Shown piece by piece: positions 4,398 to 21,460 of a stretch of DNA of 24,000 nt. The stretch covers positions 796 through 24,795 of the forward strand of contig JAZSFP010000004.1 of assembly GCA_045532295.1 (NCBI GenBank), in the 5' to 3' direction. The notes under the pieces were generated by a model. The model searched no databases, was not told the DNA's origin, and saw only the letters and a program-made list of their open reading frames with translations. How positions within the stretch are numbered: position 1 is the first letter of the stretch; each line of letters opens with the position of its first letter. This DNA comes from Pumilibacteraceae bacterium (lineage in GTDB: Bacteria; Bacillota; Clostridia; Christensenellales; Pumilibacteraceae). The position numbers and the translations under genes are program-made.

Positions 4398-4418
4398 GAA
4401 ATATTAGGAGGGGAAATT

Positions 4419-5625: not shown

Positions 5626-5630
5626 AAAAA

Positions 5631-5665
5631 AACCTCAAGTTTTTACGCTTGAGGTTTTCTTTTTA
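5631..5665. terminator. Bidirectional rho-independent terminator between convergent genes
   Basis: AACCTCAAG (5631-5639) pairs with CTTGAGGTT (5648-5656) around an 8 nt loop. An A-run precedes it and TTTTCTTTTT follows. It ends the minus-strand train after the gamma subunit gene and the plus-strand unit from the left. Confidence 0.8.
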
Positions 5666-6200: not shown

Positions 6201-6953
6201 TTAGTCCTCCTTCTTCGCGCTTCTGTCCTTGTAAACGCCTAAGGGATAATAGGGGAGCATTTTCTCCTCTACCCACTCAAGCGCCTTTTGAGGCGTCATA
6301 CCCCAGTTGGTAGGGCAAGAAGAAACGACTTCGATAAGCGAAAAGCCTTTGCCTTCAACTTGGTTACGGAACGCTTTAAGGATTGCCTTTTTAGCGTTCT
6401 TTACGTTTTTAACGGAGTTAACTGCAACGCGCTCAATATATTCAGGACCGTCCAAGGTTGCGAGCATTTCGCTAACTCTAATGGGGAAGCCCTGCGTTGC
6501 GGTATCACGACCGTAGGGGGAGGTTTGCGTTACCTGACCGGGAAGGGAGGTAGGCGCCATTTGTCCGCCCGTCATACCGTAGATAGCGTTGTTTACGAAG
6601 ATAATCGTGATATTCTCGCCTCTGGTTGCTGAGTGTACCGTTTCCGCCATACCGATAGAGGCAAGGTCGCCGTCGCCTTGGTAAGTAAATACGATATTTT
6701 CGGGCATACAGCGTTTAAGTCCCGTTGCAACCGCGGGCGCGCGTCCGTGAGCCGCCTCTAACATATCGCAAGTAAAGTAGTCGTAAGCCATAACCGCGCA
6801 ACCAACGGGCGCAACGCCAATGGTCTTACCTTCAATGCCAAGTTCTTCAATAGCCTCCGCTACGAGACGGTGAATAATACCGTGAGTACAGCCCGGGCAG
6901 TAATGCAAGGGCGTATCGGTGAGCGTAGAGGGTTTTTTAAATACGATAGCCAT
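6201..6953 (-). CDS. 2-oxoacid:ferredoxin oxidoreductase, beta (TPP-binding) subunit
   Basis: 250 aa with CPGCTHG and the TPP motif GDGDLASIG...NNAIYGMTGGQ. Its ATG overlaps the alpha subunit stop (TAATG), and AAGGAGG lies within the alpha 3' end. Confidence 0.9.
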   Translation of the reverse strand: MAIVFKKPSTLTDTPLHYCPGCTHGIIHRLVAEAIEELGIEGKTIGVAPVGCAVMAYDYFTCDMLEAAHGRAPAVATGLKRCMPENIVFTYQGDGDLASIGMAETVHSATRGENITIIFVNNAIYGMTGGQMAPTSLPGQVTQTSPYGRDTATQGFPIRVSEMLATLDGPEYIERVAVNSVKNVKNAKKAILKAFRNQVEGKGFSLIEVVSSCPTNWGMTPQKALEWVEEKMLPYYPLGVYKDRSAKKED

Positions 6954-8014
6954 TATTTAACCTCCTTCGACATCTTTTCGATGCTTGCAAGCACCTCGTC
7001 GGGCGAGGGCAACATACCACCCGTTCTGCTCGTGAGCCATACGGGGCGTTTGCACTCGGTCGCAAGGCGAATATCTTCAATCATTTGACCCATAGAAAGT
7101 TCTACGGAAATAAAGCCTTTAACCTGCTCTGCGGTCTTTTTCAAAACTTCGGTGGGGAAAGGCCAAAGCGTAATGGGGCGAATAAGTCCCACTTTTACGC
7201 CTTTCTTTCTCGCTGCGGTTACCGCGTTTTTGGAAATTCTTGCCGCGATACCGAACGCTACTACGCAGTACTCCGCGTCGTCCATCATATAACTTTCGTA
7301 TAAAACTTCGTCCTTATGGATTTTAGCGTACTTTTCAAAGCGTTCAATATTCGTCTTTTCCAAAATCTCGGGTTTAAGATAGAGCGAATTGATAATATTA
7401 TGCTTTCTCTCGCCCTTAGTTCCGTTAGCAGCCCAAGGCTTTTCAACGGGCGTAGAATTACTCTCGGGGATAGAAACGGGCTCCATCATTTGTCCCATAG
7501 TTCCGTCTGCAAGTAGCATTACGGGCATACGGTATTTGTCCGCTAAGTCGAACGCCTTAATCGTATAGTCCGCCATCTCTTGAACGGAGGCAGGGGCAAG
7601 CACTATAAGATGATAGTCGCCGTGTCCACCGCCCTTGGTCGCTTGGAAGTAGTCCGACTGCGAGGGCTGAATACCACCAAGACCGGGACCGCCACGCTGA
7701 ACGTTGACGATAAGCGCGGGAAGGTCTGCGCCGGCTATGTAGGAAATACCCTCTTGTTTAAGGGAAATTCCGGGGCTTGAAGAGGAAGTCATTACTCTAA
7801 AGCCTGCGCCTGCAACGCCGTAAACCATATTGATTGCGGAAACTTCGCTCTCAGCCTGCAAGAATACTCCACCGATTTTGGGCATACGCTTAGCCATATA
7901 AGCGGCAATCTCCGTTTGAGGCGTGATGGGATAACCAAAGTAGTGTCTGCAACCTGCTTTAATAGCCGCTTCCGCTATCGCCTCGTTACCTTTCATTAAA
8001 ACTTTTTCAGCCAT
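6953..8014 (-). CDS. 2-oxoacid:ferredoxin oxidoreductase, alpha subunit
   Basis: 353 aa. The N-terminus reads KGNEAIAEAAIKAGCRHYFGYPITPQTEI, followed by the internal motif VQRGGPGLGG, both typical of OFOR alpha subunits. Confidence 0.9.
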   Translation of the reverse strand: MAEKVLMKGNEAIAEAAIKAGCRHYFGYPITPQTEIAAYMAKRMPKIGGVFLQAESEVSAINMVYGVAGAGFRVMTSSSSPGISLKQEGISYIAGADLPALIVNVQRGGPGLGGIQPSQSDYFQATKGGGHGDYHLIVLAPASVQEMADYTIKAFDLADKYRMPVMLLADGTMGQMMEPVSIPESNSTPVEKPWAANGTKGERKHNIINSLYLKPEILEKTNIERFEKYAKIHKDEVLYESYMMDDAEYCVVAFGIAARISKNAVTAARKKGVKVGLIRPITLWPFPTEVLKKTAEQVKGFISVELSMGQMIEDIRLATECKRPVWLTSRTGGMLPSPDEVLASIEKMSKEVK

Positions 8015-8026: not shown

Positions 8027-8233
8027 TTATCTTTCCACCGTAATCGCGCAGTCGGGACACATCGTAGCGCAGAAAGCGCAACCGATACACGCCTCTTGGT
8101 TGATAACCTCCGCAGGCGAGTGTCCTTTCGCGTTGAGGACGGTCTTGCTAAGTTCAATAATCTTCTTTGGGCAAGCGTGAACGCAAAGTCCACAACCCTT
8201 GCACACGTTTACTTCAATCGTAACTTTTGCCAT
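8027..8233 (-). CDS. 2-oxoacid:ferredoxin oxidoreductase, delta subunit (2x[4Fe-4S] ferredoxin)
   Basis: 68 aa with two CxxCxxCxxxCP motifs (CKGCGLCVHACP and CIGCAFCATMCP). Confidence 0.9.
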   Translation of the reverse strand: MAKVTIEVNVCKGCGLCVHACPKKIIELSKTVLNAKGHSPAEVINQEACIGCAFCATMCPDCAITVER

Positions 8234-8237: not shown

Positions 8238-8894
8238 TTACTCCTTAATATCGTAATATTTGCTTTGAAGGACGAGGGGGAACGCTCCCTCCATTTCCAC
8301 GGCAGAAGTCGTGAAAAGCACCTTTAGTCCCGTCAAAGCGGAAAGTCTTTCGCACTCGTCTTTAGTCGCTAAGATATCGTTTGCGGTAGTCTCGTCGCCG
8401 AGGTTAGAGTTGTTGATGATTGCGGTGAACTTGATTTTGCACGCGCTCTCAATCTCACGCATAACCTCGATAGCGTCCTCCGCCGTTCTCGTTAGCGGAC
8501 GATAAAAGTTAGCCACGAAACACATTTCGTAATTGTTTTCTTCTAAAATATAGGGGGTATATCTTCCCAGCGCGTACGCTCCTCTATCGTCGCCACCGAC
8601 GTCAATTATTGCAACCGTATTGCGATTTTGGAACATTGAGTACGCTTCGGGAGGAAGGGAAGGAAGGTCTACGTTAGTGTTAGCGAAAGCAGGAAGAATA
8701 ACTTTTACGCCCTTCTCCACTAACTCTCTTTCGCTATCCGCCGAGCGAAAATAGGGGTTGACGATATCAAGGTCAGCGAGCGTTACCGCTTTCCCCTCGC
8801 CCTTTAGCGCGAGCGCGAGGTTGACCGCAATATTCGTTTTTCCGCTACCGTAATGCCCTGCGATTATATAGACGCGCTTGTCTACGCCTTGCAT
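8238..8894 (-). CDS. P-loop NTPase of the MinD/ParA/CooC-like (SIMIBI) type, function unknown
   Basis: 218 aa with Walker A GHYGSGKT at residues 13-20, then LADLDIVNP and the Walker-B-like AIIDVGGDD. It overlaps the ilvE 3' end by 13 nt, which suggests translational coupling. Confidence 0.7.
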   Translation of the reverse strand: MQGVDKRVYIIAGHYGSGKTNIAVNLALALKGEGKAVTLADLDIVNPYFRSADSERELVEKGVKVILPAFANTNVDLPSLPPEAYSMFQNRNTVAIIDVGGDDRGAYALGRYTPYILEENNYEMCFVANFYRPLTRTAEDAIEVMREIESACKIKFTAIINNSNLGDETTANDILATKDECERLSALTGLKVLFTTSAVEMEGAFPLVLQSKYYDIKE

Positions 8895-9961
8895 ACCTTA
8901 CACATCCAGCCGTGAGTATCCTCTACCTTGCCCCACTGAATACCCGTTAAGTTGTCGTAGAGTTTTTGAGTGAGCGCGCCGATTTCGTTATTCGATACGG
9001 TGTACTCAACGCCGTCGTAGAAGAGTTTGCCGATGGGCGAAACGACTGCCGCCGTTCCCGTTCCCCAAGCCTCTTCAAGTTTGCCTTCTTTTGCCGCGGT
9101 AAAGAGTTCGTCGACGGAGAAAAGGCGTTCTTCAACCTCGTAGCCCCACTCTTTGAGAAGTTCTACGCAAGACTTTCTGGTAATACCGGGAAGAACCGAG
9201 CCGGTGAGCGCAGGCGTGATAATCTTTCCGTCCACTTTGAACATTACGTTCATACTGCCTACTTCTTCGATATACTTTCTGTCTACGCCGTCAAGCCAAA
9301 GAACTTGGGTATAACCGTTCTCTTCCGCTCTCTTGCCTGCTCTAAGGGAGGCTGCGTAGTTACCACCGCACTTAGCGTAACCCGTACCACCGCGAACCGC
9401 TCTGACGTCGCTTTGCTCGATAGCGATTTTAACGGGGTTAATGCCCTCTGCGTAGTACGCGCCAACGGGCGAGCAGATTACCACGAACATAGCCTCGTGT
9501 ACTGCGTGAACGCCAAGGTGTGGGTCGTTACCGTACATATAGGGACGAAGGTAAAGGGAAGTTCCCTCGCTGTGAGGAACCCAGTCCTTTTCCACTTCTA
9601 CGATAGTCTTTAAGATATCAAGGCAAGCCTCTTCGTCGATTTGGGGCAAGCAAAGACGCTCCGCGCTATTGTTGAGACGGCGAATATTCTCTAAAGGACG
9701 GAACATTGCAATCTCGTTTTGGGCAGTTCTATAAGCCTTCATACCCTCGAAAATCTCCGCGCCGTAGTGAAGAACGGTGGACGCTGGATGAACGGGGATA
9801 GGCGCGAAAGGTACGATTTGAGCGTCGTACCAGCCCTTGTCCTCCGACCACTTCATAATAAACATATGGTCGGTAAACACTCTACCAAAACCCAGTTTGC
9901 TCTCGTCTTGAGGTTTTTGCTTGGGACTTGTCGTCTTAGTAATTTTAATATCGAATTTCAT
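8882..9961 (-). CDS. ilvE: Branched-chain-amino-acid aminotransferase (fold-type IV)
   Basis: 359 aa with FEGMKAYR, SLYLRP, GTGYAKCGGNYAASL, LPGITR and GTAAVVSPI. AGAGAGG lies 8 nt upstream of the ATG. Only 29 nt separate it from the upstream ligase gene, and that gap has no hairpin. Confidence 0.9.
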   Translation of the reverse strand: MKFDIKITKTTSPKQKPQDESKLGFGRVFTDHMFIMKWSEDKGWYDAQIVPFAPIPVHPASTVLHYGAEIFEGMKAYRTAQNEIAMFRPLENIRRLNNSAERLCLPQIDEEACLDILKTIVEVEKDWVPHSEGTSLYLRPYMYGNDPHLGVHAVHEAMFVVICSPVGAYYAEGINPVKIAIEQSDVRAVRGGTGYAKCGGNYAASLRAGKRAEENGYTQVLWLDGVDRKYIEEVGSMNVMFKVDGKIITPALTGSVLPGITRKSCVELLKEWGYEVEERLFSVDELFTAAKEGKLEEAWGTGTAAVVSPIGKLFYDGVEYTVSNNEIGALTQKLYDNLTGIQWGKVEDTHGWMCKVCKA

Positions 9962-9990: not shown

Positions 9991-12285
9991 CTATAATTTA
10001 TTTCTTTGGATTTTACCCGAAGTCGTCTTGGGAAGTTCGTCGCGGAATACGACTACTCTGGGGTACTTATAAGGCGCGGTGCGTTCTTTAACGTAGGCTT
10101 GGATTTCCTTTTTGAGTTCTTCCGTGCCCTCCGTTCCCTTAACGAGCACTATGCTCGCCTTAACTACTTGACCGCGAACCTCGTCGGGCTGAGCGGAAAC
10201 GCCACACTCAAGCACGTAGGGAAGTTCCATAATGACGTTCTCGATTTCAAAAGGTCCGATGCGGTAACCAGACGACTTAATAACGTCGTCAACGCGTCCT
10301 ACGTACCAGTAATAGCCGTCCTCGTCGCGCCAAGCGGTGTCGCCCGTATGGTAATATCCGTCGTGCCAACACTCCGCCGTCTTTTCCTCGTCGTCGTAGT
10401 AGCCCACGAACAAGCCGTTGGGTTTGCCGTGCTCGGTCTTGATACAGATTTCGCCCACTTCGCCCACCGCGGTAGGTTTGCCGTCGGCGTCGAGAAGTTT
10501 AATGTCGTATAGGGGTACGGGCTTACCCATTGAGCCAAGGCGCGAGGTCGTGCCTGCAAGGTTAGCAAGCGCAACGGTGGTTTCCGTTTGACCAAAGCCC
10601 TCCATAATCTGAAGTCCCGTTGCCTTTTCAAACTGACGGAAAACTTCGGGGTTGAGCGCCTCGCCGGCAGTTGACATATGCTCGATTGAGGAAAGGTCGA
10701 AGTTGGAAAGGTCTTGCTTTATCATCATTCTAAGCATAGTCGGGGGAGCACAGAAAGTGGTTATATGGTACTTTGCGAACATAGGCATAATGTCGTTTGC
10801 GTCGAAACGGTCAAAGTCGTAAACGAACAGTCCCGCCTCGCAAAGCCATTGTCCGTAAAGTTTACCCCACGCTGCCTTTGCCCAACCCGTGTCGGATATG
10901 GTAAGGTGTAGTCCGTCGGGGTTTACCGAGTGCCAGTACTTTGCGGTTATAAAGTGTCCTAAGGGGTACTTGTAGTTGTGCATAGCAATCTTGGGATTGC
11001 CGGTAGTACCCGAGGTAAAGTACATAAGCATTATATCGTCTCCGCAAGGAGCGTCCTCGCCTCTTTCAAGTTTGCCCGTATAGAGCGTATACTCTTCGTC
11101 GAAGGTTCTCCAGCCCTCACGCTTGCCGTTGACCATAATGATATGCTCGAGCGAGGGAGCGTTCTCTTTTGCCTTTTCCACCTCGAAAGACACTTCGCCG
11201 TCAGCGGTACAAAGGATTGCTTTTACGCCCGCTTTGTTAAGACGGTAAGTAATATCGTGCTCTTTAAGTTGGTTGGTAGCGGGGATTGCGATTGCGCCGA
11301 TCTTGTGAAGAGCGACCATAGCGAACCAGAACTGATAGTGGCGTTTGAGGATAAGCATTACCCTATCGCCTTTCTTAATTCCAAGCGCCTTGAAGTAGTT
11401 TGCGCACTGGTTAGAGGCGCGTTTAAGGTCGTGGAAAGTAATTCTTCGCTCCGTTTTGTCGTTCGATATATGCATAAGCGCGGTCTTGTCGGGGTCTTTG
11501 TCCGCAATAGCGTCCACCACGTCAAAGCCGAAGTTAAAGGTATCGTCGTTTCTAAAGGATATGGAAGTAGGTACTCCTCTCCCGTCCTCGGTAGTCGTGA
11601 TATACTTTTCCCAAACGCGTTTTCCCTCGTCCTTTTTCTTGGGAGGCGCGAACACCACGTCGGGCTCGTTGATTTTTGCGTGGGTAATGGTAGAAACGGA
11701 CTCGCGAGCAGGGTTAAGAACGAACGCGTAGAACACGCAGTCTGCGTTGTCCACCGCTATCATACCGTGAGGAACGGAACTGTCGTAGTAAATGCTGTCG
11801 CCCTCGCGGAGAATTTCGATATGATTTCCTACCTGTACTTTTAACGCGCCCGATACTACCACGTCGCACTCTTGTCCTTCGTGCGAGGTTAGTTCTATGG
11901 GCTTATTTTGTTGGAGAGGGTCGTACGAGGACACTACGAACAACGGCTCGGCAATTCTGTTCTTAAAGGCGGAGGCGAGGTTATAGTAAACCATACCGTG
12001 AGCCTTTTGAATTTCTTGACCTTCGCCCTTTCGCGTTACCGTGTATCCTGCAAGTCGAGGACCGCTACCGTCGATAATTTCGGTTACGTCAACCTTTAAA
12101 GCGGCTGCGCAACGGTACAAAAAGGCAAAGTTAAGGTCGCTACTACCGTTCTCGCAAGAGGCGTACTCTTCTTCGCTTACGCCCGTCTTTTGCGCCATTT
12201 CTTCAATCGAAAGTCCTTCGATTTCACGCAAAGTGCGAATACGCTGTGCCATCTCCATTATTTTGCTTTCTAAACTGTTAAACAT
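9991..12285 (-). CDS. Fusion protein: XRE-type HTH + cupin + AMP-forming acyl-CoA synthetase (medium-chain/ACSM-like), paralog 1 (Val T-box controlled)
   Basis: 764 aa counted from ATG 12285 (AGGAG 6 nt upstream); the track's extra 14 codons lie in the leader. The HTH is RIRTLREIEGLSIEEMAQKTGVSEEEYASCENG. The cupin is HEGQECDVVVSGALKVQVGNHIEILREGDSIYYDSSVPHGM. Ligase motifs are FTSGTTGNPK, SDTGW, GFGQTET, YHTGD, SSGYRIGPFEIE and PKTTSGKIQR. Confidence 0.85.
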   Translation of the reverse strand: MFNSLESKIMEMAQRIRTLREIEGLSIEEMAQKTGVSEEEYASCENGSSDLNFAFLYRCAAALKVDVTEIIDGSGPRLAGYTVTRKGEGQEIQKAHGMVYYNLASAFKNRIAEPLFVVSSYDPLQQNKPIELTSHEGQECDVVVSGALKVQVGNHIEILREGDSIYYDSSVPHGMIAVDNADCVFYAFVLNPARESVSTITHAKINEPDVVFAPPKKKDEGKRVWEKYITTTEDGRGVPTSISFRNDDTFNFGFDVVDAIADKDPDKTALMHISNDKTERRITFHDLKRASNQCANYFKALGIKKGDRVMLILKRHYQFWFAMVALHKIGAIAIPATNQLKEHDITYRLNKAGVKAILCTADGEVSFEVEKAKENAPSLEHIIMVNGKREGWRTFDEEYTLYTGKLERGEDAPCGDDIMLMYFTSGTTGNPKIAMHNYKYPLGHFITAKYWHSVNPDGLHLTISDTGWAKAAWGKLYGQWLCEAGLFVYDFDRFDANDIMPMFAKYHITTFCAPPTMLRMMIKQDLSNFDLSSIEHMSTAGEALNPEVFRQFEKATGLQIMEGFGQTETTVALANLAGTTSRLGSMGKPVPLYDIKLLDADGKPTAVGEVGEICIKTEHGKPNGLFVGYYDDEEKTAECWHDGYYHTGDTAWRDEDGYYWYVGRVDDVIKSSGYRIGPFEIENVIMELPYVLECGVSAQPDEVRGQVVKASIVLVKGTEGTEELKKEIQAYVKERTAPYKYPRVVVFRDELPKTTSGKIQRNKL

Positions 12286-12353: not shown

Positions 12354-12626
12354 ACAAAAAACGCTCGTCTCAAAAAATCATCTTTGAGACGAGCATACTT
12401 TTCCGTATTACCCGCGGTACCACTCAAATTGCGCAAGCGCGCCACCTCAGGCTCAAACAAGCCGTAGACTTTTACGCAGTCGTCACGGGAAGGTTCTAAT
12501 AGGGCGAGCGCCCGTTCTTCCTTCCGACTCGGAAGTTACAGTTCTTTTCTCACTTTAACGGTTCACACCTTCGTCCGTCTCTCTGAAAAGTTACCCAAAA
12601 AGAACACTCTTCGTCACAGTCTTTAC
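12354..12626 (-). promoter_or_regulatory. T-box riboswitch leader, specifier GUA (Val)
   Basis: Read on the minus strand. GA/K-turn: GACT-GTGAC-GAAG pairs with CTTC-CGA-GTC. AG bay: AGAGAG. Distal stem ACGG/CCGT has a loop containing GGTGTGA. Specifier loop: GAAC-U-GUA-A-CUUC, with the codon at the complement of 12537-12539. T-box motif: AATTTGAGTGGTACCGCGGG (complement of 12411-12430). Terminator: GCTCGTCTCAA/TTGAGACGAGC (12363-12394) plus GTTTTTTGT. TTTGAG of the T-box can pair with CTCAAA of the terminator 5' arm to form the antiterminator. Confidence 0.9.
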
Positions 12627-12632: not shown

Positions 12633-12661
12633 ATTATACCATTTTTAATATGGTTTGTCAA
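12633..12661 (-). promoter_or_regulatory. Consensus SigA-type promoter of the Val T-box unit
   Basis: Minus strand: TTGACA (12661-12656), a 17 nt spacer, then TATAAT (12638-12633) preceded by TGg (extended -10). It starts 45 nt downstream of the paralog-2 stop codon. Confidence 0.85.
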
Positions 12662-12706: not shown

Positions 12707-14974
12707 TTATAATTTATTTCTTTGGATTTTACCCGAGATAGTCTTGGGCAGTTCGTCGCGGAAGACTACGATACGGGGGTACTTATAGGGCGCGGTATGG
12801 GACTTAACGTAGGCTTGGATTTCCTTTTTAAGTTCTTCCGTTCCCACCGTTCCTTTGGTTAAAACTACGCTCGCCTTAACTACCTGACCACGAATATCGT
12901 CGGGCTCGGGGGACACGGCGCACTCAAGCACGTAGGGAAGTTCCATAATAACGCTCTCGATTTCAAAAGGTCCGATGCGGTAGCCAGACGACTTGATAAC
13001 GTCGTCTTTACGGCTAACGTACCAAAAATATCCGTCCTCGTCGCGCCAAGCGGTGTCGCCCGTGTGGTAAACGCCGTCGTGCCAAGCGTCAGCGGTAAGG
13101 TCTTCCGCTCTGTAATATTCCTTGAAAAGTCCACAGGGAACGGACTCGTCGGTATGGATAACGATTTCGCCCGTCTCACCGTTGGGAAGAGAATTGCCCT
13201 CGTCGTCCACGATATCCACTCTGTACTGGGGCGACGCTTTACCCATCGAGCCGATTTTGGGCGTCGTTCCGCGGAGGTTACAGATAGTAAGCGTGGTTTC
13301 CGTTTGGCCAAAGCCCTCCATAATCTTAAGCCCCGTAGCGTGCTCGAACTGACGGTAAACCTCGGGGTTGAGCGCCTCGCCTGCCGTGGTCATATGATGA
13401 ACGGAGGAAAAATCGTACTTTCCAAGGTCGCTCTTTATGAACATTCTGAGCATAGTTGGGGGAGCGCAGAAGGTCGTGATTTGGTACTTTGCGAACATAG
13501 GAAGGATTTCCTCTGCCTTGAAGACGTCGAAGTCGTAAACGAACACCGCGCCTTCGCAAAGCCATTGACCGTACAGTTTGCCCCAGAGCGATTTGCCCCA
13601 GCCCGTATCGGAAATGGTAAAGTGTAGTCCGTCGCGCTCGCAGTTATGCCAGTATTTAGCGGTAACGTAATGTCCAAGCGCGTAGGTGTGCTTGTGAGCC
13701 GCCATTTTAGGATTGCCCGTCGTTCCAGAAGTGAAGAACATAAGCGCGGTATCCTCGCCGGCAGAGGCGTTCTCTGCGCGGTCGAACTTGCTCGAAAAAC
13801 GCGTGTACTCTTCGTTAAAGTTATGCCAGCCCTCTTTTTCGCCGTTGACGAGCAACTTAACTTCCACGGAAGGACAGTTCTTCGACGCGCGCTCGGCAAT
13901 GTCGGAAACGTCGCCGTCGGCAGTACAAACGATAGCCTTTACGCTCGCTGCGTTAAAGCGGTATTCAAAGTCGTGCTCTTTGAGTTGGTTGGTAGCAGGG
14001 ATTGCGACCGCGCCGATTTTATGAAGAGCGACCATAGCGAACCAGAACTGATAATGGCGTTTAAGCACGAGCATTACCTTATCCCCTCTCTTAATTCCAA
14101 GCGAGAGGAAGTAGTTCGCGCACTGGTTAGAGGCTTTTTTGATATCCTTAAAGGTAAATCTGCGCTCCGTTAAATCACGGCTTATATGGAGCATAGCAAG
14201 TTTATCGGGGTACTTATTCGCAATCTCGTCCACAACGTCAAAGCCGAAGTTAAAGGTGTCGGTATTCTTGAACTTAATGTCGGTAAGAGTGCCGTTCTCG
14301 TCCTCGGTGGTCTCGACGAACTTCTCGCAAATAAGTTCCTCGGACTCCTGATGCGCCACTACGCTCTTTCTTACTACCTCTTCCTTGGTGTCCTCGCCGG
14401 GAAGAACTACCGCGCAGAACACGCAGTCGCGTCCGCCGATTGCTATCATACCGTGAGGGGTGGACGAATTATAGTAAATGCTGTCGCCCTCGTTAAGAAT
14501 TTCCGTATGCTCGCCGATTTGTACTTTAAGCGAACCCTCTAAAACGAGGTCGAACTCTTGACCGCCGTGGGTGGTAAGGTGGATAGGCTTATTCTGTTGC
14601 GACGCAGAATACTCGTATCTTACCCAGTAAGGCTGAGCAATTTTATCGCGGAACTTGGGCGCAAGGTTCTTAATGTCGATGCCCTCTTCTTTAGCCGTCG
14701 ACTGTCCCTGTCCCTTTCTCGTTACCGTATAAGAAGATAGGTTCGCAGCGTTACCTTCAAGAAGTTCGGTAAGTTCTACGCCGAAAACTAACGCGCATTT
14801 ATGAATAAATGAAAAGGGAATATCTATTCGACCAGACTCGTATTTAATGTAATCGCTCTCGCTAACTTCAGCGCGATTTGCCATTTCCGATACCGAAAAT
14901 CCCATTACGTTACGCATTTCTTTGATACGCTGGGCAACTTCCGTCAGTCTGTTCATAGTGTTCTTGTCTTCCAT
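12707..14974 (-). CDS. Fusion protein: XRE-type HTH + cupin + AMP-forming acyl-CoA synthetase, paralog 2 (Ile T-box controlled)
   Basis: 755 aa counted from ATG 14974 (AAGGAG 9 nt upstream). The track's extra 43 codons run through the T-box terminator. The architecture and motifs match paralog 1 (FTSGTTGNPK, SDTGW, GFGQTET, YHTGD, SSGYRIGPFEIE, PKTISGKIQR), and both share the C-terminal end SGKIQRNKL. Confidence 0.85.
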   Translation of the reverse strand: MEDKNTMNRLTEVAQRIKEMRNVMGFSVSEMANRAEVSESDYIKYESGRIDIPFSFIHKCALVFGVELTELLEGNAANLSSYTVTRKGQGQSTAKEEGIDIKNLAPKFRDKIAQPYWVRYEYSASQQNKPIHLTTHGGQEFDLVLEGSLKVQIGEHTEILNEGDSIYYNSSTPHGMIAIGGRDCVFCAVVLPGEDTKEEVVRKSVVAHQESEELICEKFVETTEDENGTLTDIKFKNTDTFNFGFDVVDEIANKYPDKLAMLHISRDLTERRFTFKDIKKASNQCANYFLSLGIKRGDKVMLVLKRHYQFWFAMVALHKIGAVAIPATNQLKEHDFEYRFNAASVKAIVCTADGDVSDIAERASKNCPSVEVKLLVNGEKEGWHNFNEEYTRFSSKFDRAENASAGEDTALMFFTSGTTGNPKMAAHKHTYALGHYVTAKYWHNCERDGLHFTISDTGWGKSLWGKLYGQWLCEGAVFVYDFDVFKAEEILPMFAKYQITTFCAPPTMLRMFIKSDLGKYDFSSVHHMTTAGEALNPEVYRQFEHATGLKIMEGFGQTETTLTICNLRGTTPKIGSMGKASPQYRVDIVDDEGNSLPNGETGEIVIHTDESVPCGLFKEYYRAEDLTADAWHDGVYHTGDTAWRDEDGYFWYVSRKDDVIKSSGYRIGPFEIESVIMELPYVLECAVSPEPDDIRGQVVKASVVLTKGTVGTEELKKEIQAYVKSHTAPYKYPRIVVFRDELPKTISGKIQRNKL

Positions 14975-15042: not shown

Positions 15043-15315
15043 CTAAAAAACCCATCTCAATGATTCTAACATTGAGACGGGTTAAAATAACTCGCGGTAC
15101 CACTCAACTTGCATAAAAAATTATGCCACTTATCAGGTTCAAACAAACCCTACGCACTAACGCAGCGGACTCGGAAAGCGCCTACTAAAGCAATCGCTCT
15201 TTGGGGCTTTCGGCTCGGAAGTGATAGGTCTTGCGGACTCTTCGTTTATCGGTTCTCAGCAACCCGACTCTCTGGAAAACTATTTATCCAACCGTCTTCG
15301 TCACAGCCTTTATAT
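15043..15315 (-). promoter_or_regulatory. T-box riboswitch leader, specifier AUC (Ile)
   Basis: Read on the minus strand. GA/K-turn: GGCT-GTGAC-GAAG pairs with CTTC-CGA-GCC. AG bay: AGAGAG. Distal stem TCGG/CCGA has a loop containing GCTGAGA. Specifier loop: GACC-U-AUC-A-CUUC, with the codon at the complement of 15223-15225. T-box motif: AAGTTGAGTGGTACCGCGAG (complement of 15091-15110). Terminator: ACCCGTCTCAATG/CATTGAGATGGGT (15050-15082) plus TTTTTTAGG. Confidence 0.9.
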
Positions 15316-15321: not shown

Positions 15322-15350
15322 ATTATAGCACTACGCTTTTTCTTTGTCAA
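15322..15350 (-). promoter_or_regulatory. Consensus SigA-type promoter of the Ile T-box unit
   Basis: Minus strand: TTGACA (15350-15345), a 17 nt spacer, then TATAAT (15327-15322) preceded by TGc. It begins 30 nt after the amidohydrolase stop. Confidence 0.85.
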
Positions 15351-15379: not shown

Positions 15380-16174
15380 TTACAAGTTTTTCAAGTTAAA
15401 TACCCTTATTGCGTTCTTGTAAAAAATCTGCTCTCTCTCCTCTTCGGTTAAGCCCAAAGCGTTAAAGCGCGCCATTTCCTCGTCAATCTTCCACATAGGA
15501 AAATCGGTAGCGAAAAGCACTCTTTGTGCGCCGTACTTTCTTATAACGGCGGTAGCGGTTTGAGGGGAAATCATTGCAAGCGAACTTGAACAATCCACGA
15601 AAACCTGCTTATAGGGCGCAAGTTTTTCCACCGCCTCTTCCCAAACGGAATATCCGCCGAGGTGCGCGGCAATTACCGTAAGATTTGGGAAACGCTCCAA
15701 AACGCTTATGAGGTTTTCGGGGTTAGAATAATTGTAACGGCTATCGCCTGCGTGGATAAGCAAGGGAATTTTGCCCTCGATTGCGCGGTAAATCTTGTCG
15801 CATCGTGGGTCGTCAAGCGCGATTGCTTGAATATCGGGGTGGAGTTTTACGCCGTGAAGATTGAGCGATATAATCTCTTCCACTTCGCTTTCCACCTCTT
15901 CGCTATCGGGGTGGAGCGTTCCAAGTCCGATAAAGCGGTCGGGACGGCTTTTAACCATATCCGCAATAAAGTGGTTTATGGATCGGACTTGCGAGGGCTT
16001 AGTTGCAACGGAGAAAATAACGGAGTGCGTTACGCCGTTCTTCTCACTCTCGCTTATAAGCGTTTCCACTCGTCCGTCGTAGTCCATCGGGATAGAATAG
16101 AACTTGCCTATGCTCTCCACTGCTTTTTCAACGATTTTCTCGGGGTAAATATGGCAATGACAGTCGATAATCAT
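15380..16174 (-). CDS. TIM-barrel metal-dependent hydrolase (amidohydrolase-2 / COG2159-like)
   Basis: 264 aa with N-terminal IIDCHCH (HxH metal motif), later HLGG and FATDFP. It is the last gene of the Leu T-box unit, starting 4 nt after the upstream stop. Confidence 0.7.
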   Translation of the reverse strand: MIIDCHCHIYPEKIVEKAVESIGKFYSIPMDYDGRVETLISESEKNGVTHSVIFSVATKPSQVRSINHFIADMVKSRPDRFIGLGTLHPDSEEVESEVEEIISLNLHGVKLHPDIQAIALDDPRCDKIYRAIEGKIPLLIHAGDSRYNYSNPENLISVLERFPNLTVIAAHLGGYSVWEEAVEKLAPYKQVFVDCSSSLAMISPQTATAVIRKYGAQRVLFATDFPMWKIDEEMARFNALGLTEEEREQIFYKNAIRVFNLKNL

Positions 16175-16177: not shown

Positions 16178-18631
16178 TTACCCCTTTATGCCGAGCATTT
16201 CCACGCTCTGCTCTTTCATCTTATATTTAAGAATTTTGCCCGCAGCGTTCATCGGGAATTCTTTGACGAACACGAAGTAACGGGGTACTTTGTGTTTAGC
16301 CATATTAGCGTTACCGTACTCGCGCATTTCCGCCTCGTCCGCCGTTTCGCCTTTTTTAAGGATTATCCAAGCGCAACATTCTTCGCCGTATCTCTCGTCG
16401 GGAACGCCCACTACTTGCACGTCGCGAACTTTTTGGTGAGTAAGATAGAACTCTTCAATCTCGCGAGGATAGAGGTTTTCGCCACCGCGAATAATCATAT
16501 CTTTAAGTCTGCCCGTAACCTTATAGTATCCGTCCGCAGTTTTGCAACAGATATCTCCGCTATGGAGCCAGCCTTCTCTATCAATCGCCTCGCTGGTTGC
16601 TTTGGGCATTTTGTAATAGCCTTTCATTATATTATAACCGCGCGCAACGAACTCGCCGTTCTCACCGTCGGGAACTTCCTCGCCCGTTTCGGGGACGATA
16701 ACCTTACACTCAACGCCGGGGAAAGCCGAGCCTACCGTTTCCACTCTATGCTCTTCGTCCTCGTTGACTTCGCCCATAGTGCACCCGGGGCTTGCCTCGG
16801 TCTGACCGTAAACGCTGATTATCTCGCGCATATTCATTTCCGCCGACGCTCTGCGCATAAGGTCTGCCGGACAGTTCGCCCCTGCCATTATTCCCGTTCG
16901 CATATACGAAAAGTCCGTTTTAGCAAAGTCGGGGTGGTTGAACATAGCGATAAACATCGTGGGAACGCCGTTAAAGGCGGTAATATGCTCGTCGTTTACG
17001 CAAGCAAGCGAACTTTTTGGCGAGAAGTAGGGCATAGGACACATAGTTACGCCGTGCGTCATACTGTTCGTCATTGAAAGCACCATACCAAAGCAATGGA
17101 ACATAGGTACTTGTATCATCATTCTGTCCGCCGTGGACATATCCATTCTGTCGCCTATGATTTTACCGTTGTTGACGATATTGCGATGAGTGAGCATTAC
17201 GCCTTTAGGAAAGCCCGTAGTACCCGAAGTGTACTGCATATTGCACACGTCGTCGGGGCGAACGAGCGCGGCGCGTCTTCTAACCTCTTCGTCAGGAACG
17301 AGAACGCTCCTCTTCATAAAGTCTTCCCACTCTAAGCATCCGTCCATATTAAAGCCTACCGTTATTACGTTGCGAAGGAAAGGCAAGGTCTTTGAGTAAA
17401 GGGGCTGGGCGGGGGTTAAATTTTTAAGTTCGGGACAAAGTTCTTCGATTATTTCTTTATAGTTACTGTCCTTGCAACTGTCAATCATAACGAGCGTATG
17501 CGTGTCGGACTGACGGAGGAGGTACTCTGCCTCGTGGATTTTATAAGCGGTATTAACCGTAACGAGAACCGCGCCGATTTTTACCGTCGCCCAGAAGGTA
17601 AGATACCACTGAGGAATATTCGTCGCCCAAATTGCCACGTGGTGTCCGGGGCGCACGCCAAGGGATATAAGTGAGGCGGCTACTTTATCCACTTCGTCAC
17701 GGAATTCGCGATAGGTACGCGTATAATCGTGCGTGGTATACTTAAAAGCGTACTGGTCGGGATAATGCTCTACCATAGTGTCGAGAACCTCGGAAAAGGT
17801 AAGGTCGAGAACTTCGTACTTTTTCCAAGGGTGCGTTCCGCTCTTATCTCTATTATAGAAAATTTCCTTGGGTTTTGCGCTCGCCCGTTCAATCGAACTC
17901 ATAAAACTTTCAAAGTGCGTGAGCAAAATATCGGGGTTAGTAACCTCGCCGGCGGAAAGCGCGCAGATATAACCGTCGTAGTTAAGGGAACGGAGCGCGC
18001 TTATAAACTCGCCTACGGGCAGTTCGCCCTCGCCCATAAGCGTGTCTTCGCCATCAAGCATATCGCCGATTTTAACGTACTCAATGTACGCGCCCAAAGT
18101 CTGAATAGTGCGGTCGGCAGTCTCTTTCGCTCTAAAGAAGGTCTCGCGGATATTCCAGCACACCTTTACCGACGCCGAGCCCAGCATACCTATAACGCCC
18201 AAGATTTTCTCAGTGTGAGCAAGCGCGTTCGCCGTCTCTATTAAAATATCAACGCCGTACTCTTCCGCCGTCTTTATTACAGGGGTAAAGATTTCCTTGA
18301 TTTTTTCCTCCGTAATTTCGCCAAAGGTAACCACGACGCCCGGAGCAGTTACGCGTCCTGCTTGCTTAATCGTTTCGATAATATCCTGAGGGTTGGTGTT
18401 TTGGTCGATAATCTTGGGATAGCCCACTACCGCTATGGCAATTCTGCGGTTGATAAGTTTGCGCTTTTGGTCAACGGTAAGTTCCTCGCGGAAAATACTG
18501 TCCGCGTGCGCGCTAATCTGTTCTTCTATCGACGATATTTCAAAGCCCGAAAACCCGTAATGCGCCGTAGCGGTGCAAAGTTCAAGGAAACTTTTAGTGG
18601 GTACGAGCGAAGTAGAAAATGCAAGTTTCAT
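16178..18631 (-). CDS. Fusion protein: xylose-isomerase-like TIM barrel (N-terminal ~250 aa) + AMP-dependent acyl-CoA ligase (FadD/ACSF2-like)
   Basis: 817 aa. The N-terminal part (GFSGFEIS...VVVTFG...DILIETAN...VCWNIRETF...YVKIGD...GELPVGEFISALRSLNYDGYI) looks like the AP-endonuclease-2/xylose-isomerase fold. The C-terminal part has YTSGTTGFPKGVMLTH, YGQTE, LHSGD, RGGENLYPREIE and AAGKILK. The 471-aa plus-strand ORF at 15662-17077 is an antisense shadow. Confidence 0.8.
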   Translation of the reverse strand: MKLAFSTSLVPTKSFLELCTATAHYGFSGFEISSIEEQISAHADSIFREELTVDQKRKLINRRIAIAVVGYPKIIDQNTNPQDIIETIKQAGRVTAPGVVVTFGEITEEKIKEIFTPVIKTAEEYGVDILIETANALAHTEKILGVIGMLGSASVKVCWNIRETFFRAKETADRTIQTLGAYIEYVKIGDMLDGEDTLMGEGELPVGEFISALRSLNYDGYICALSAGEVTNPDILLTHFESFMSSIERASAKPKEIFYNRDKSGTHPWKKYEVLDLTFSEVLDTMVEHYPDQYAFKYTTHDYTRTYREFRDEVDKVAASLISLGVRPGHHVAIWATNIPQWYLTFWATVKIGAVLVTVNTAYKIHEAEYLLRQSDTHTLVMIDSCKDSNYKEIIEELCPELKNLTPAQPLYSKTLPFLRNVITVGFNMDGCLEWEDFMKRSVLVPDEEVRRRAALVRPDDVCNMQYTSGTTGFPKGVMLTHRNIVNNGKIIGDRMDMSTADRMMIQVPMFHCFGMVLSMTNSMTHGVTMCPMPYFSPKSSLACVNDEHITAFNGVPTMFIAMFNHPDFAKTDFSYMRTGIMAGANCPADLMRRASAEMNMREIISVYGQTEASPGCTMGEVNEDEEHRVETVGSAFPGVECKVIVPETGEEVPDGENGEFVARGYNIMKGYYKMPKATSEAIDREGWLHSGDICCKTADGYYKVTGRLKDMIIRGGENLYPREIEEFYLTHQKVRDVQVVGVPDERYGEECCAWIILKKGETADEAEMREYGNANMAKHKVPRYFVFVKEFPMNAAGKILKYKMKEQSVEMLGIKG

Positions 18632-18633
18632 AG

Positions 18634-19992
18634 TTATTTTTCCTCGTGTACGATTTTGTTAAGGGCGTTTACGTACGCGCGAACGCACGCTCCGATAATG
18701 TCGGTTGAAACGCCGTTGCCGGGGTAAAGTTTTCCGTTAGCGCGAAGTCTAATGATGGCCGAGCCTACCGCCTCTCTGCCTTTCGTGATTGCGGAAATGC
18801 GGAAGTCGTCAAGTTCGTAATGGTGTCCTACGACCTGCTCAATTGCGTGGAACACCGCGTCGATAGGACCGTCGCCCGTGCTTACTCCGCTAAAACGCTC
18901 GCCGTTCTTCTCAAGCGTTACGTTCGCAGTCGCCGAAATTATGCTACCGCTGTTTACAACGTAACTAACGAGGTGATAGGTAGAAGGCGCTTGCATAGCG
19001 GTGGAGGCGATTACTGCCTCAAGTTCACGCTTGTCAACCGACTTTTTGCGAACGGTAAGACGCTTAAATTCGTCGTAAACCTTGCCCGTGTCCTCGTCCG
19101 TAAGTTCGTATCCAAGCGATTTTATTACCGCGCTAACCTCAGAAAGCGTGCTTGAAGAGGAAAGTTTAACCGTCTTTTCCTCCTCCTCGCTCTCTTTTTC
19201 CGTTACCGCGCTTGCTTGCTCGCTAATGTTTTTAATGGAAGTGATATCAATGTTTGCGCTCGCGTTGAGCGTACCGCCCTTTGCTCTAATAACCTCGGCA
19301 AAAACCGCTGGGCGAAGGAACGCTCCGCTAATGGAAGTTACCACACCGTCCGCGCCACTCTCAATAGCCTTAATAGCGTTCGCGCTCGCTAAAGAAAGAG
19401 CGTCCGAGGGACAAGCAATGACGGAAATTTTCGATACCGTATTGATTTTTTCGAGCATTTTTGCGTAATCTTCGGGAAAAGCCTCGCCTGCCTCGTCGTA
19501 AATAATTACTCCGCTTGCGCCCTTCTCTTCTACCGCTTTAACGCACTTTTCGATAAAGCCTTCCTCCGCTCTAAAAGCGTCGGTGAGCATAACGAAAACC
19601 TCACTACATTTTGCTTTTGCGCACTCGGTAAGCAACGCTATTTTTTCAAGCATAGCCGAGGCTTTAAGATGATATTTGTACTCCATAGTCGCAGTGGAAA
19701 CGGGCATAGACACTACGAGCGCAGGGGCAACCGCTCCCTTAACGCAAGCATAGGCGCGCTCTATTCCCTTTTCGCTATCGCCTACCTCTACGGCAACTTT
19801 TGCGTTTTTAACGGACTCAGCGAGCGTTTTGTAGATTACTTCGCTCTCTTTACTAACGCCGGGGAAAGGCAAATAAATAATATCCACTCCGCTCTTGTCA
19901 AGTAGCGCGCATAGGTTTAGTCTTTCACGGAAGGTAAAGTTTTCCTTCTCAATGGTCTTGAGCGTTGCGTCTATAGTAATGATTTTTTTCAT
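18634..19992 (-). CDS. 2-isopropylmalate-synthase-like protein (DRE-TIM barrel + LeuA C-terminal regulatory domain) with non-canonical active-site residues
   Basis: 452 aa with AGGAGG 9 nt upstream of the ATG. It is collinear with LeuA, but IDATLKTIEKE replaces FDTTLRDGEQ and SVIACPSDALSLASANAIKAIESGA replaces [23 protein letters not shown]. The C-terminus (GVSTGDGPIDAVFHAIE...ISAITKGREAVGSAIIRL...GNGVSTDIIGACVRAYVNALNK) matches the LeuA dimerisation and Leu-binding domain pattern. Confidence 0.75.
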   Translation of the reverse strand: MKKIITIDATLKTIEKENFTFRERLNLCALLDKSGVDIIYLPFPGVSKESEVIYKTLAESVKNAKVAVEVGDSEKGIERAYACVKGAVAPALVVSMPVSTATMEYKYHLKASAMLEKIALLTECAKAKCSEVFVMLTDAFRAEEGFIEKCVKAVEEKGASGVIIYDEAGEAFPEDYAKMLEKINTVSKISVIACPSDALSLASANAIKAIESGADGVVTSISGAFLRPAVFAEVIRAKGGTLNASANIDITSIKNISEQASAVTEKESEEEEKTVKLSSSSTLSEVSAVIKSLGYELTDEDTGKVYDEFKRLTVRKKSVDKRELEAVIASTAMQAPSTYHLVSYVVNSGSIISATANVTLEKNGERFSGVSTGDGPIDAVFHAIEQVVGHHYELDDFRISAITKGREAVGSAIIRLRANGKLYPGNGVSTDIIGACVRAYVNALNKIVHEEK

Positions 19993-20019
19993 AATTTATT
20001 GCCTCCTAAAGTCAAATAC

Positions 20020-20292
20020 ATAAACAAAACCCGCAGATGAGAAGATTTCCTTCTCTTCTGCGGGATGATTACAAAGAACCACGGTACCACCCGTCATTGC
20101 CGTAAAATACGACCTCTTATAGAACTCCAACAAGTCCGTTCGCTATAACGGGCGCGCCCGTAATTCCTTACTATAAGTTCCGGAATTCCGCTCCGATACG
20201 AGACTGCTATCCCGTCCGCCCGTTATCTCGCACCAACCGATAACTCTCTGAAGGGTTTTTGACGACACGCATAATATCTTCACAGCGTTTAT
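20020..20292 (-). promoter_or_regulatory. T-box riboswitch leader, specifier CUC (Leu)
   Basis: Read on the minus strand. GA/K-turn: CGCT-GTGAA-GATA pairs with TATC-GGA-GCG. AG bay: AGAGAG. Distal stem TTATC/GATAA has a loop containing GGTGCGA. Specifier loop: GCAG-U-CUC-G-UAUC, with the codon at the complement of 20200-20202. T-box motif: AATGACGGGTGGTACCGTGG (complement of 20079-20098). Terminator: CCCGCAGAAGAGAAG/CTTCTCATCTGCGGG (20030-20064, one mismatch) plus TTTTGTTTAT. Confidence 0.9.
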
Positions 20293-20298
20293 GGTGGT

Positions 20299-20327
20299 AT
20301 ATTATCATTTTTGAAAAAATATGTCAA
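20299..20327 (-). promoter_or_regulatory. SigA-type promoter of the Leu T-box unit
   Basis: Minus strand: TTGACA (20327-20322), a 17 nt spacer, then TAATAT (20304-20299). Confidence 0.75.
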
Positions 20328-20542: not shown

Positions 20543-21460
20543 CTACAAATTTGCTAAAACGCAGGCTACGATAGCAAGAACGAGTCCAACGGTGTTTTTT
20601 ACCGTTATTTTTTCTTTAAATAGTATAATATCCACTACGAACACCATAATAAGACCTACTGCGTAACTGAGCGGATAAACGATTCCCGCGTCCAAAAGTC
20701 CAGTAGCAAGCGTCATAAGAACTTGGAAAGCGTAGAGCGTAACGGAGGCTATTACGATAAGGTACCAAACCTTGCCGATAGGGAATTTTTCCTTTTCCCT
20801 ACTCTCTTCCGTTTCCGTTGCTTGAACTTTTTGCTTTTGGCTAAGCGTAATGATAAGATAGTAAATCACGAAACCTACGAACGCAAAGAGGAAAGTAAGG
20901 AAGTTGAAGTAATTGATATTCGCGCTATCGTAATTTGCGAAGAGTTTTTGGGAAAGGGACACGCCTGCCATAGAAAGAACGACGAGCGCCATAAGTATCC
21001 ACTTAACCACACCGCCCTTTTTCTCTTCGCCGTTGCCCTTGCCCGAGAAAAGCACCGCTGAAACGATAAGGAGCGCGGTCGCGAGCAGTTGCCAAATAGA
21101 AACCGTCTCGCCGGGGAAAAGCACGGGCGCAAGCAGAACGGGGATTATTACTCCGCCAAGGGTTGAGAACACTTCAATAAGCGAGACGGAGGCGTAGGAA
21201 GTCGCCATAATCCACACGAAAAGGATAAGCGCGTTAGCAATACCCGAGAGAAGTATTATAAGATAGCCTTCCGCCCCGGTCGTTACCGTTGCTCCGCCGA
21301 TAAGCCATATTAAAAGTCCGACGAGCGCGCAAATACCGCTACGGCAGAGATTAATAAGCACGCTATTCTTTGCCCCGGGGGCGTTCATAGCGCAGTATTT
21401 CATTGCAACGATTTTGCCCGTTGCCGATAGTTTTGAAAGAATAAGATATAAGTAGCCCAT
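20543..21460 (-). CDS. Polytopic membrane protein, DMT/EamA-like transporter
   Basis: 305 aa with about 10 hydrophobic segments in two halves, separated by a charged loop (GNGEEKKGG). A second charged loop is QKQKVQATETEESREKEK. The family call rests on topology and composition only. Confidence 0.55.
   Translation of the reverse strand: MGYLYLILSKLSATGKIVAMKYCAMNAPGAKNSVLINLCRSGICALVGLLIWLIGGATVTTGAEGYLIILLSGIANALILFVWIMATSYASVSLIEVFSTLGGVIIPVLLAPVLFPGETVSIWQLLATALLIVSAVLFSGKGNGEEKKGGVVKWILMALVVLSMAGVSLSQKLFANYDSANINYFNFLTFLFAFVGFVIYYLIITLSQKQKVQATETEESREKEKFPIGKVWYLIVIASVTLYAFQVLMTLATGLLDAGIVYPLSYAVGLIMVFVVDIILFKEKITVKNTVGLVLAIVACVLANL

Follow-up and report, generated by a model that had tools for sequence, protein, structure and literature searches.

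What is a leucine riboswitch doing in front of a gene that resembles leuA but encodes a protein without the catalytic metal ligands? This question is raised by positions 20,020 to 20,327 of a 24,000-nucleotide stretch (the window, from here on) of contig JAZSFP010000004.1, assembly GCA_045532295.1, from a Pumilibacteraceae bacterium. An earlier note had read there a leucine-specific T-box (T-box 1) controlling a LeuA-like gene, a gene that fuses a TIM barrel to an acyl-CoA ligase (TIM::ligase) and an amidohydrolase gene, and had taken the regulon to be repurposed. Our analysis indicates that this operon is one of three T-box-controlled arms of a cluster which probably serves to salvage isovalerate, 2-methylbutyrate and isobutyrate into leucine, isoleucine and valine by reductive carboxylation. 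The RNA comes first, with all T-box and operon coordinates given on the minus strand of the window and all motifs read 5' to 3' on that strand.

20299..20327, minus strand: promoter P1, TTGACA-17-TAATAT, with TG upstream of the -10 (extended -10), 10/12 matches
20058..20292, minus strand: T-box 1 leader, full length (RF00230)
20188..20291, minus strand: Stem I of T-box 1 (Stem I model R1, 50.4 bits, E 2.8e-9)
20250..20244, minus strand: AG bulge CAGAGAG of T-box 1, read from the sequence
20202..20200, minus strand: specifier CUC (Leu) of T-box 1, followed by G20199 and the helix strand UAUC
20089..20086, minus strand: UGGU of the T-box bulge, read from the sequence
20022..20064, minus strand: intrinsic terminator of T-box 1 (hairpin 20064..20030 plus U-tract)

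A search with Rfam cmscan matched RF00230 at 20292..20058 with 111.1 bits (gathering cutoff 93, E 3.9e-24) over the entire model (positions 1-219 of 219), and T-box 1 is the single T-box of the window above the gathering score. Its Stem I comprises a K-turn, the lower helix GAUA/UAUC, a specifier loop reading GCAG-U-CUC-G ahead of the lower-helix strand UAUC, the AG bulge and the distal loop GGUUGGUGCGA. The conserved T-box sequence ACGGGUGGUACCGUGG lies at 20095..20080; as GGGUGGUACCGUGG in the antiterminator it carries the UGGU bulge, and the antiterminator competes with a terminator. The terminator hairpin 20064..20030 has 8+6 pairs flanking one 1x1 mismatch, and UUUUGUUU (20029..20022) comes directly after it. 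The 93-nt terminator region folds with -35.1 kcal/mol (z = -5.3), a stability that none of 200 shuffled sequences reaches. Terminator and antiterminator are mutually exclusive, as the T-box mechanism demands, because they share CCCG (20064..20061), which lies both in the 5' arm of the former and in the 3' strand of the latter.

The position of the extended -10 of P1 places the transcription start at the first nucleotide of T-box 1, and an AGGAGG (20007..20002) and the ATG at 19992 follow 3' of the terminator. The interval 20020-20327 covers about 300 nt between the -35 hexamer of P1 and the U-tract, both included, and is therefore the full leader from promoter to terminator. The earlier note's description thus holds in its completeness, its length of about 300 nt and its motifs (the T-box sequence, AGAGAG and the distal loop GGTGCGA, all found on the minus strand), and its 15-bp terminator is the hairpin with one mismatch described above. 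In T-boxes the UGGN bulge pairs with the NCCA 3' end of the tRNA, so that UGGU fits a discriminator A; tRNA-Leu has A73 and fits, although UGGU cannot tell Leu, Ile, Val and Phe apart. Judged by all these features, T-box 1 is a genuine, standard Leu-class T-box of the predicted transcription-attenuating kind, and the RNA itself is ordinary.

The identity of the tRNA sensed depends on the register of the specifier. In the window alone, GUCUCGU permits several registers, and the register was therefore tested by comparison across related leaders. More than 490 relatives of TIM::ligase were present among GTDB species representatives, and the loci of the best 80 (L001-L080, 68-76% identical) were taken as related loci; all are metagenome-assembled genomes of uncultured Clostridia, mostly from the hindgut of yak, goat, sheep, cattle, buffalo and deer. 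For Stem I, a covariance model was built from 29 well-aligned leaders, with a structure written by hand after the Rfam architecture; it was searched against the window and the 80 related loci, and its 114 matches were brought into one structural alignment. Standard pairs fill 91.8% of its paired cells versus 66.9% in column shuffles (0/500 reach the observed value), and only 26-47% when partners are slid by 1-3 columns; fitting the alignment to the model inflates these figures somewhat, yet the slid controls remain clearly apart. Compensatory changes occur at 20 of the 21 Stem I pairs. The lower helix, which sets the register, is 99.8% paired and all four of its pairs covary (GAUA/UAUC, GCGG/CCGC, GUGG/CCAC, GAAG/CUUC and GGAA/UUCC).

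Among 65 leaders before leuA-like genes, the closing purine is immediately preceded by CUC in 63, by CUG (still Leu) in one (L055:8284-8386) and by CCC (Pro) in one (L062:8301-8404). The flanks vary by clade (GU-CUC-G, GAA-CUC-A, CCU-CUC-A and UUA-CUC-A) and CUC is the sole triplet common to all of them; the register is therefore CUC, the one proposed earlier from the triplet's place before UAUC. A different register, in which T-box 1 would sense another tRNA (UCU or UCG for Ser, GUC for Val), draws on the overlapping triplets of GUCUCGU and on the G that stands after the codon in place of the usual A. The conserved position holds a purine, which both A and G fit, and the GAA-CUC-A of other clades is a canonical S-turn context; given also the covariation of the lower helix, we consider another register exceedingly unlikely.

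The same alignment gives AUC in 27 and GUA in 16 leaders before the ligases with a helix-turn-helix (HTH) and a cupin domain (HTH-cupin-ligases) described below, and the related loci also hold a UUC (Phe) class with the loop GAA-UUC-A. In two leaders (L010:~8237 and L012:~8299) UGGC, which would pair with a discriminator G, replaces UGGU. Several simpler procedures were set aside. RNAalifold on a MAFFT alignment of 60 leaders returned a CUC-GAG pairing that is spurious, the lower helix of two clades having been placed in different columns. A heuristic specifier finder gave the right pattern with many misses and some false registers (TCA for TTC in the Phe class) and was superseded by the covariance-model alignment, and the strict T-box core pattern GGxTGGxACC, which missed T-boxes 2 and 3 of the window and most distant loci, was replaced by a loosened one.

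If the riboswitch is ordinary, its targets are not. Three genes follow the leader.

18634..19992, minus strand: gene 1, LeuA-like protein (452 aa), HMGL-like barrel plus LeuA_dimer
16178..18631, minus strand: gene 2, TIM::ligase (817 aa), AP_endonuc_2 TIM barrel plus AMP-dependent acyl-CoA ligase
15380..16174, minus strand: gene 3, Amidohydro_2 protein (264 aa), translationally coupled to gene 2 in the window

The start of gene 2 overlaps gene 1 by four bases and the three genes are joined by overlapping stop and start codons; these overlaps and the Pfam domains bear out the order of a TIM::ligase fusion followed by an amidohydrolase. The LeuA-like protein matches PF00682 (1.1e-22) and PF08502 (3.8e-30, model positions 2-130 of 131). 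In an alignment with the 2-isopropylmalate synthase (IPMS) of Listeria, DTTLRDGEQ becomes DATLKTIEK, HCHDD becomes ACPSD and the HxH motif becomes CPS. We scored the catalytic positions Arg80, Asp81, Glu218, His285 and His287 (M. tuberculosis numbering) across 73 orthologs. The Asp metal ligand is replaced by K, A, V, T, E or R, the Glu218 equivalent mostly by L, and the HxH positions by Q, E or C and by S, so that Asp, Glu and His are each retained in 0/73; the Arg of the DRE motif is K in 59 and R in 7. The loss of the metal ligands reported earlier for the window, seen there in DATLKTIEK and CPS, is accordingly common to the whole set. By contrast, the regulatory C-terminal domain is the better conserved part (mean column identity of 0.82 versus 0.67 for the barrel), and its GDGPID loop is invariant across the orthologs.

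Could the protein nevertheless be a working, divergent 2-isopropylmalate (or related) synthase, its gene being one for de novo leucine synthesis under the usual Leu T-box? Both LeuA Pfam domains are present, the best NCBIfam models are IPMS models, and Leu T-boxes before leuA are already known (PMC2494555). Yet none of the 73 orthologs keeps a residue on which catalysis should depend other than the Arg, itself mostly Lys, and substitution of R80 or E218 abolishes the activity of the M. tuberculosis enzyme (PMC10464499). The best NCBIfam model, NF002086, scores 231.7 bits against an equivalog cutoff of 532, leuBCD is adjacent in no related locus, and the sources, where they name the orthologs, call them 'hypothetical protein'. 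An active synthase is thus very unlikely. In true IPMS the leucine site lies in the C-terminal domain (PMC9860122), and by its residues the LeuA-like protein is a catalytically dead barrel that has kept a leucine-binding allosteric domain.

The second product of the operon is TIM::ligase. Its ligase half is complete, with the SGTTGxPKG and C-terminal GK motifs kept, and more conserved than the TIM half (0.92 versus 0.71). In a weak alignment of the TIM half with D-tagatose 3-epimerase (E 0.03), the first metal Glu is kept, while an invariant Asn and Lys replace the Asp and His ligands. The three-domain architecture is found in 120/120 of the best homologs, which are called, where named, 'AMP-binding protein' or 'AMP-dependent synthetase'. 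From its place behind a Leu T-box, isovalerate is a reasonably likely substrate, and we propose TIM::ligase as a candidate isovalerate-CoA ligase. The window holds a second, stand-alone AP_endonuc_2 (xylose isomerase-like) TIM barrel at 4419..5225 (plus strand), convergent with the end of the vor operon described below; it shares its Pfam family with the N-terminal part of TIM::ligase but retains an IENLP motif.

The operon does not stand by itself. Two further T-boxes, each with its own promoter and ligase gene, lie downstream.

15322..15350, minus strand: promoter P2, TTGACA-17-TATAAT, 12/12 matches, with TG
15049..15313, minus strand: T-box 2 leader and terminator (15083..15049), 86.7 bits, E ~1e-18, specifier AUC (Ile) at 15225..15223
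12707..14974, minus strand: HTH-cupin-ligase 1 (755 aa), MbcS/MacsMa-type, proposed 2-methylbutyrate-CoA ligase, the substrate inferred from T-box and homologs
12633..12661, minus strand: promoter P3, TTGACA-17-TATAAT, 12/12 matches, with TG
12361..12626, minus strand: T-box 3 leader and terminator (12396..12361), 75.4 bits, E ~1e-15, specifier GUA (Val) at 12539..12537
9991..12285, minus strand: HTH-cupin-ligase 2 (764 aa), proposed isobutyrate-CoA ligase

Both T-boxes (15313..15070 and 12626..12382) are full-length Rfam matches at an E-value threshold, under the gathering cutoff of 93, and their specifier loops read AUC-A and GUA-A ahead of the helix strand CUUC. Leaders 2 and 3 are closer to each other than either is to T-box 1, and the two HTH-cupin-ligases are 62% identical over their full length, which looks like the duplication of a promoter-T-box-ligase module followed by a switch of specifier. 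AUC precedes the first and GUA the second HTH-cupin-ligase in every related locus with a tandem pair. This assignment of Ile and Val types covers tandem-copy loci only, as best-hit orthology fails to separate the types in genomes with a single HTH-cupin-ligase and the orthology table is cluttered by 25%-identity matches to TIM::ligase.

The ligase domain of the HTH-cupin-ligases matches PDB 3ETC (MacsMa of Methanosarcina acetivorans) at E 1.1e-181 over residues 236-751, and their best NCBIfam model is MbcS (~441 bits, equivalog cutoff 850). MacsMa prefers 2-methylbutyrate (PMC10455477), and MbcS activates 2-methylbutyrate and isobutyrate, with isovalerate a very poor substrate (PMC10026030), which fits a separate ligase lineage for the leucine arm. 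Both ligases carry an N-terminal XRE-type HTH plus cupin (14974..~14300 and 12285..~11600, minus strand), a fusion of a DNA-binding and ligand-sensing module with a metabolic enzyme, which would be a possible second, protein-level layer of control above the T-box.

The third arm runs on into the genes that would complete a pathway.

8882..9961, minus strand: IlvE, branched-chain amino acid aminotransferase (NF009897, 481 bits, cutoff 307)
8238..8894, minus strand: P-loop NTPase of Mrp/ParA/CbiA type, with weak matches to Mrp/ApbC iron-sulfur carrier, ParA and CbiA
8027..8233, minus strand: delta subunit of 2-oxoisovalerate:ferredoxin oxidoreductase (VOR), a 68-aa 2x[4Fe-4S] ferredoxin with two CxxCxxCxxxCP motifs in its translation
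8014..6953, 6953..6201 and 6196..5666, minus strand: VOR alpha, beta and gamma subunits (VorB NF005507, 567 bits, cutoff 399)
5626..5661, minus strand: cluster-ending terminator, a 14-bp stem plus T-run

All four VOR subunits are present, with the Pfam domains POR_N, PFOR_II, TPP_enzyme_C and POR; the 68-aa ferredoxin open reading frame (ORF), between the P-loop gene and vorA, was under the 80-aa cutoff of the first ORF listing. The gap between ligase 2 and ilvE is 29 nt, and a terminator scan found no terminator above chance between ligase 2 and 5661, so that ligase 2 is probably co-transcribed with ilvE and the vor genes. The P-loop NTPase gene adjoins the vor genes in every related locus that has them, and its product may help to mature VOR or to deliver Fe-S clusters to it. 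On the other side of the cluster, a membrane transporter of the EamA family (DMT; 21460..20543, minus strand) lies directly upstream of P1; no EamA transporter was found beside the cluster in the 80 related loci.

The related loci tie these parts together in other arrangements. Wherever the flanking sequence is long enough, the leuA-like gene immediately precedes TIM::ligase, and many loci have ilvE, the P-loop gene and vorABG directly after this pair. In eight loci without HTH-cupin-ligases, a CUC T-box controls leuA-like, TIM::ligase, ilvE, P-loop gene and vorABG as a single unit, and in L023 a CUC T-box stands directly ahead of the P-loop gene, vorABG and ilvE. The amidohydrolase gene is less constant: depending on the locus it lies downstream, upstream of the T-box and so outside its control, or is absent. 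Eight loci (L003, L005, L006, L007, L010, L012, L039 and L072) have tandem T-boxes, the proximal one ~80 nt upstream of leuA-like. There the distal T-box is complete and reads CUC; the proximal copy (60-64 bits, 82-86 model positions deleted) lacks both Stem I and specifier and is closely preceded by a TTGACA-N17-TATAAT-like sequence.

Six related loci add a fourth amino acid, with a Phe (UUC) T-box before a gene for a PaaK-like phenylacetate-CoA ligase, adjoining the leuA-like operon.

L025:6103-7726, L033:6088-, L037:6126- and L055:6055-: Phe T-box loci
L034:16283-, minus strand: Phe T-box locus
L067:~2585-4448: Phe T-box locus

The Phe T-box of L055 reads UUC-C, and the PaaK-like ligases of L025 and L067 score 534-555 bits with TIGR02155 (cutoff 646). 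This pairing of specifier and ligase would fit a salvage of phenylacetate to phenylalanine.

Since a T-box activates its genes in response to uncharged cognate tRNA, their products must increase the supply of the amino acid concerned. Ligases of the AMP-forming type drive the formation of acyl-CoA, and VOR is reversible, its enzyme class being credited with anabolic carboxylation. Genes for the ligase, VOR and IlvE steps are all present and clustered in the window, and from the T-box logic and the AMP-forming ligases we infer that the pathway runs in the anabolic direction. On the simplest reading the specifiers also match the ligase lineages, with the MbcS/Macs type for 2-methyl-branched acids, the separate lineage for isovalerate and PaaK for phenylacetate. 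Rumen bacteria are known to make amino acids by just such carboxylations, isovalerate giving leucine, 2-methylbutyrate isoleucine, isobutyrate valine and phenylacetate phenylalanine (PMC7356843; PMC2812497). This match, the T-box logic and the ruminant-gut habitat together make salvage by reductive carboxylation the simplest reading of the cluster.

In the proposed mechanism, uncharged tRNA-Leu would build up and its anticodon would pair with CUC in the specifier loop of Stem I, while its free NCCA end would pair with UGGU in the T-box bulge and stabilise the antiterminator. RNA polymerase would then pass the hairpin 20064..20030 and transcribe leuA-like, TIM::ligase and the amidohydrolase gene. 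The AMP-forming ligases would activate isovalerate in the Leu arm, 2-methylbutyrate in the Ile arm and isobutyrate in the Val arm, the four-subunit VOR would reductively carboxylate the acyl-CoA to the 2-oxo acid, and IlvE would aminate the latter to the branched-chain amino acid (BCAA). Since each ligase has its own promoter and cognate T-box, each arm would be induced only when its amino acid is short. The leuA-like operon would be the leucine arm of a cluster using the branched-chain fatty acids that are abundant in the ruminant gut. The idea of a repurposed regulon is right in that the leuA-like gene is non-canonical, but the evidence points to a regulon that still supplies leucine, through isovalerate salvage. 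Likewise, the link drawn between T-box and operon holds, but taken by itself it missed the Ile and Val T-boxes, IlvE and VOR of the same cluster; the operon is one of three BCAA T-box units with IlvE and VOR, and this context gives it its meaning.

The same acyl-CoAs could feed another fate as well. As with MbcS in Staphylococcus aureus, the ligases might supply branched acyl-CoA primers for branched-chain membrane fatty acids and not amino acids; a cell short of BCAAs would then run out of primers, and the T-boxes would turn on the scavenging of external acids. The Ile and Val ligases are indeed of the MbcS/MacsMa type, and MbcS has exactly such a role (PMC10026030). However, the ligases are clustered, and probably co-transcribed, with IlvE and VOR, and fab genes are not linked to the cluster. 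Moreover, in L003-type loci and in L023 the Leu T-box directly drives ilvE and vor, which is sensible only with a 2-oxo acid and an amino acid as products. We regard primer supply as improbable. A catabolic cluster, in which IlvE and VOR would gain energy by oxidising BCAAs to acyl-CoAs, with the ligases working on what results, is less probable still and in our judgement very doubtful. VOR and IlvE are reversible, and it is general knowledge that similar genes ferment amino acids in other Clostridia; but T-boxes act under amino acid scarcity, when degradation would be counterproductive, and AMP-forming ligases cost two ATP equivalents and push towards acyl-CoA, whereas the energy-conserving route, by established biochemistry, uses a phosphotransacylase plus kinase or ADP-forming synthetases.

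Several points weigh against salvage by reductive carboxylation as proposed here. The entire case rests on sequence. TIM::ligase has no close relative of known substrate, its best NCBIfam match being a generic 'fatty acid CoA ligase family' model (676 bits, cutoff 832), and the proposed pathway assigns no role to the LeuA-like protein, the TIM domain or the amidohydrolase. In the window, IlvE and VOR sit behind the Val T-box, not the Leu T-box; if leucine alone ran short, only the ligase arm would be induced, leaving the pathway dependent on basal or Val-driven VOR and IlvE. Other loci are free of this problem. One leuA-like leader, that of L062, reads CCC. Finally, the core-motif search found no T-box in a subclade of seven loci (L011, L026, L027, L036, L044, L045 and L071), nor did Rfam at E<=0.01 in L011, L027 and L045. 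This subclade keeps the gene order leuA-like, TIM::ligase, ilvE, P-loop and vor, and in L027 a 628-nt gap without an ORF of >=100 aa precedes leuA-like; another form of control may operate there.

What, then, of the LeuA-like protein? Its dead barrel and conserved leucine-binding domain, together with the strict coupling of its gene to that of the ligase, suggest a leucine-sensing subunit, and we tentatively put the protein forward as a possible regulatory partner of TIM::ligase. A fuller version joins this to the regulon: Leu, Ile and Val T-boxes (and Phe in relatives) would each gate a dedicated acid-CoA ligase, the ligases would feed a shared ferredoxin-dependent reductive carboxylase and aminotransferase, and a LeuA that no longer catalyses would be exapted, by way of its leucine-binding domain, as an allosteric leucine sensor docking on the degenerate TIM barrel of the isovalerate-CoA ligase. 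Taken whole, this organic acid-to-amino acid regulon with its sensor is on balance somewhat unlikely. If it were true, the leucine arm would have two layers of end-product control, tRNA charging read by RNA and free leucine read by protein.

The novelty is the regulon and not the riboswitch: a standard T-box controls a new set of genes, which assigns functions to several unannotated families and extends T-box control past synthetases, transporters and de novo pathways. None of these targets appears in the T-box regulon surveys of Wels 2008 and Sun 2013. Full-text literature searches found no T-box control of acyl-CoA ligases, VOR or a LeuA-like pseudoenzyme, although the survey of Vitreschak 2008 was not covered and may hold a prior mention, and found no gene-level account of the isovalerate-to-leucine route or its regulation. 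The specifier codons act as built-in labels that give a probable substrate to three generic 'AMP-binding proteins', four with the Phe-linked ligase, and mark VOR and IlvE as shared downstream steps, so that an old physiological pathway becomes directly testable at the gene level. Many fibre-degrading bacteria of the rumen and hindgut need isovalerate, 2-methylbutyrate and isobutyrate, and branched-chain volatile fatty acid supplements are used in ruminant nutrition; the cluster offers a marker set for predicting branched-chain fatty acid dependence in uncultured gut Clostridia. The LeuA-derived pseudoenzyme, found in hundreds of genomes, is a clean candidate for studying a regulatory domain that has outlived its catalytic partner.

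Compared with known systems, T-box 1 shares with the Leu-class T-boxes of Bacillus subtilis (leuS, ilv-leu) Stem I, Stem II/IIA-B, Stem III, the UGGN T-box sequence, the competing antiterminator and terminator and the CUC specifier. It differs in the G that follows the codon in the window's clade, where A is usual, and in its targets, which are not a tRNA synthetase, a transporter or de novo ilv-leu genes. Reductive carboxylation of branched-chain and aryl acids in rumen anaerobes was reportedly described by Allison and co-workers in the 1960s-70s. Among known systems the VOR of archaea belongs to it too. The cluster resembles this route of rumen anaerobes and methanogens in habitat and in the inferred order of acid, acyl-CoA, 2-oxo acid and amino acid (Leu, Ile, Val and Phe). 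The earlier work was physiological and enzymological, and our literature search found for reductive carboxylation no dedicated ligase genes, VOR/IlvE clustering or riboswitch control.

The LeuA-like protein has the plan of 2-isopropylmalate synthase LeuA, an HMGL-like barrel, a linker and LeuA_dimer, including a regulatory domain with the G-x-G-P-x-D loop; unlike LeuA, it has all its catalytic residues replaced, stays far under the NCBIfam equivalog cutoffs and has TIM::ligase, never leuBCD, as its gene partner. The ligase domains of both HTH-cupin-ligases are close homologs of MbcS of S. aureus and of MacsMa (3ETC), whose preferred 2-methylbutyrate and isobutyrate are the acids that match Ile and Val. 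Unlike those enzymes, the ligases of the window score under the MbcS equivalog cutoff, carry the N-terminal XRE-type HTH and cupin, and are under T-box control and tied to VOR and IlvE, not to lipid synthesis.

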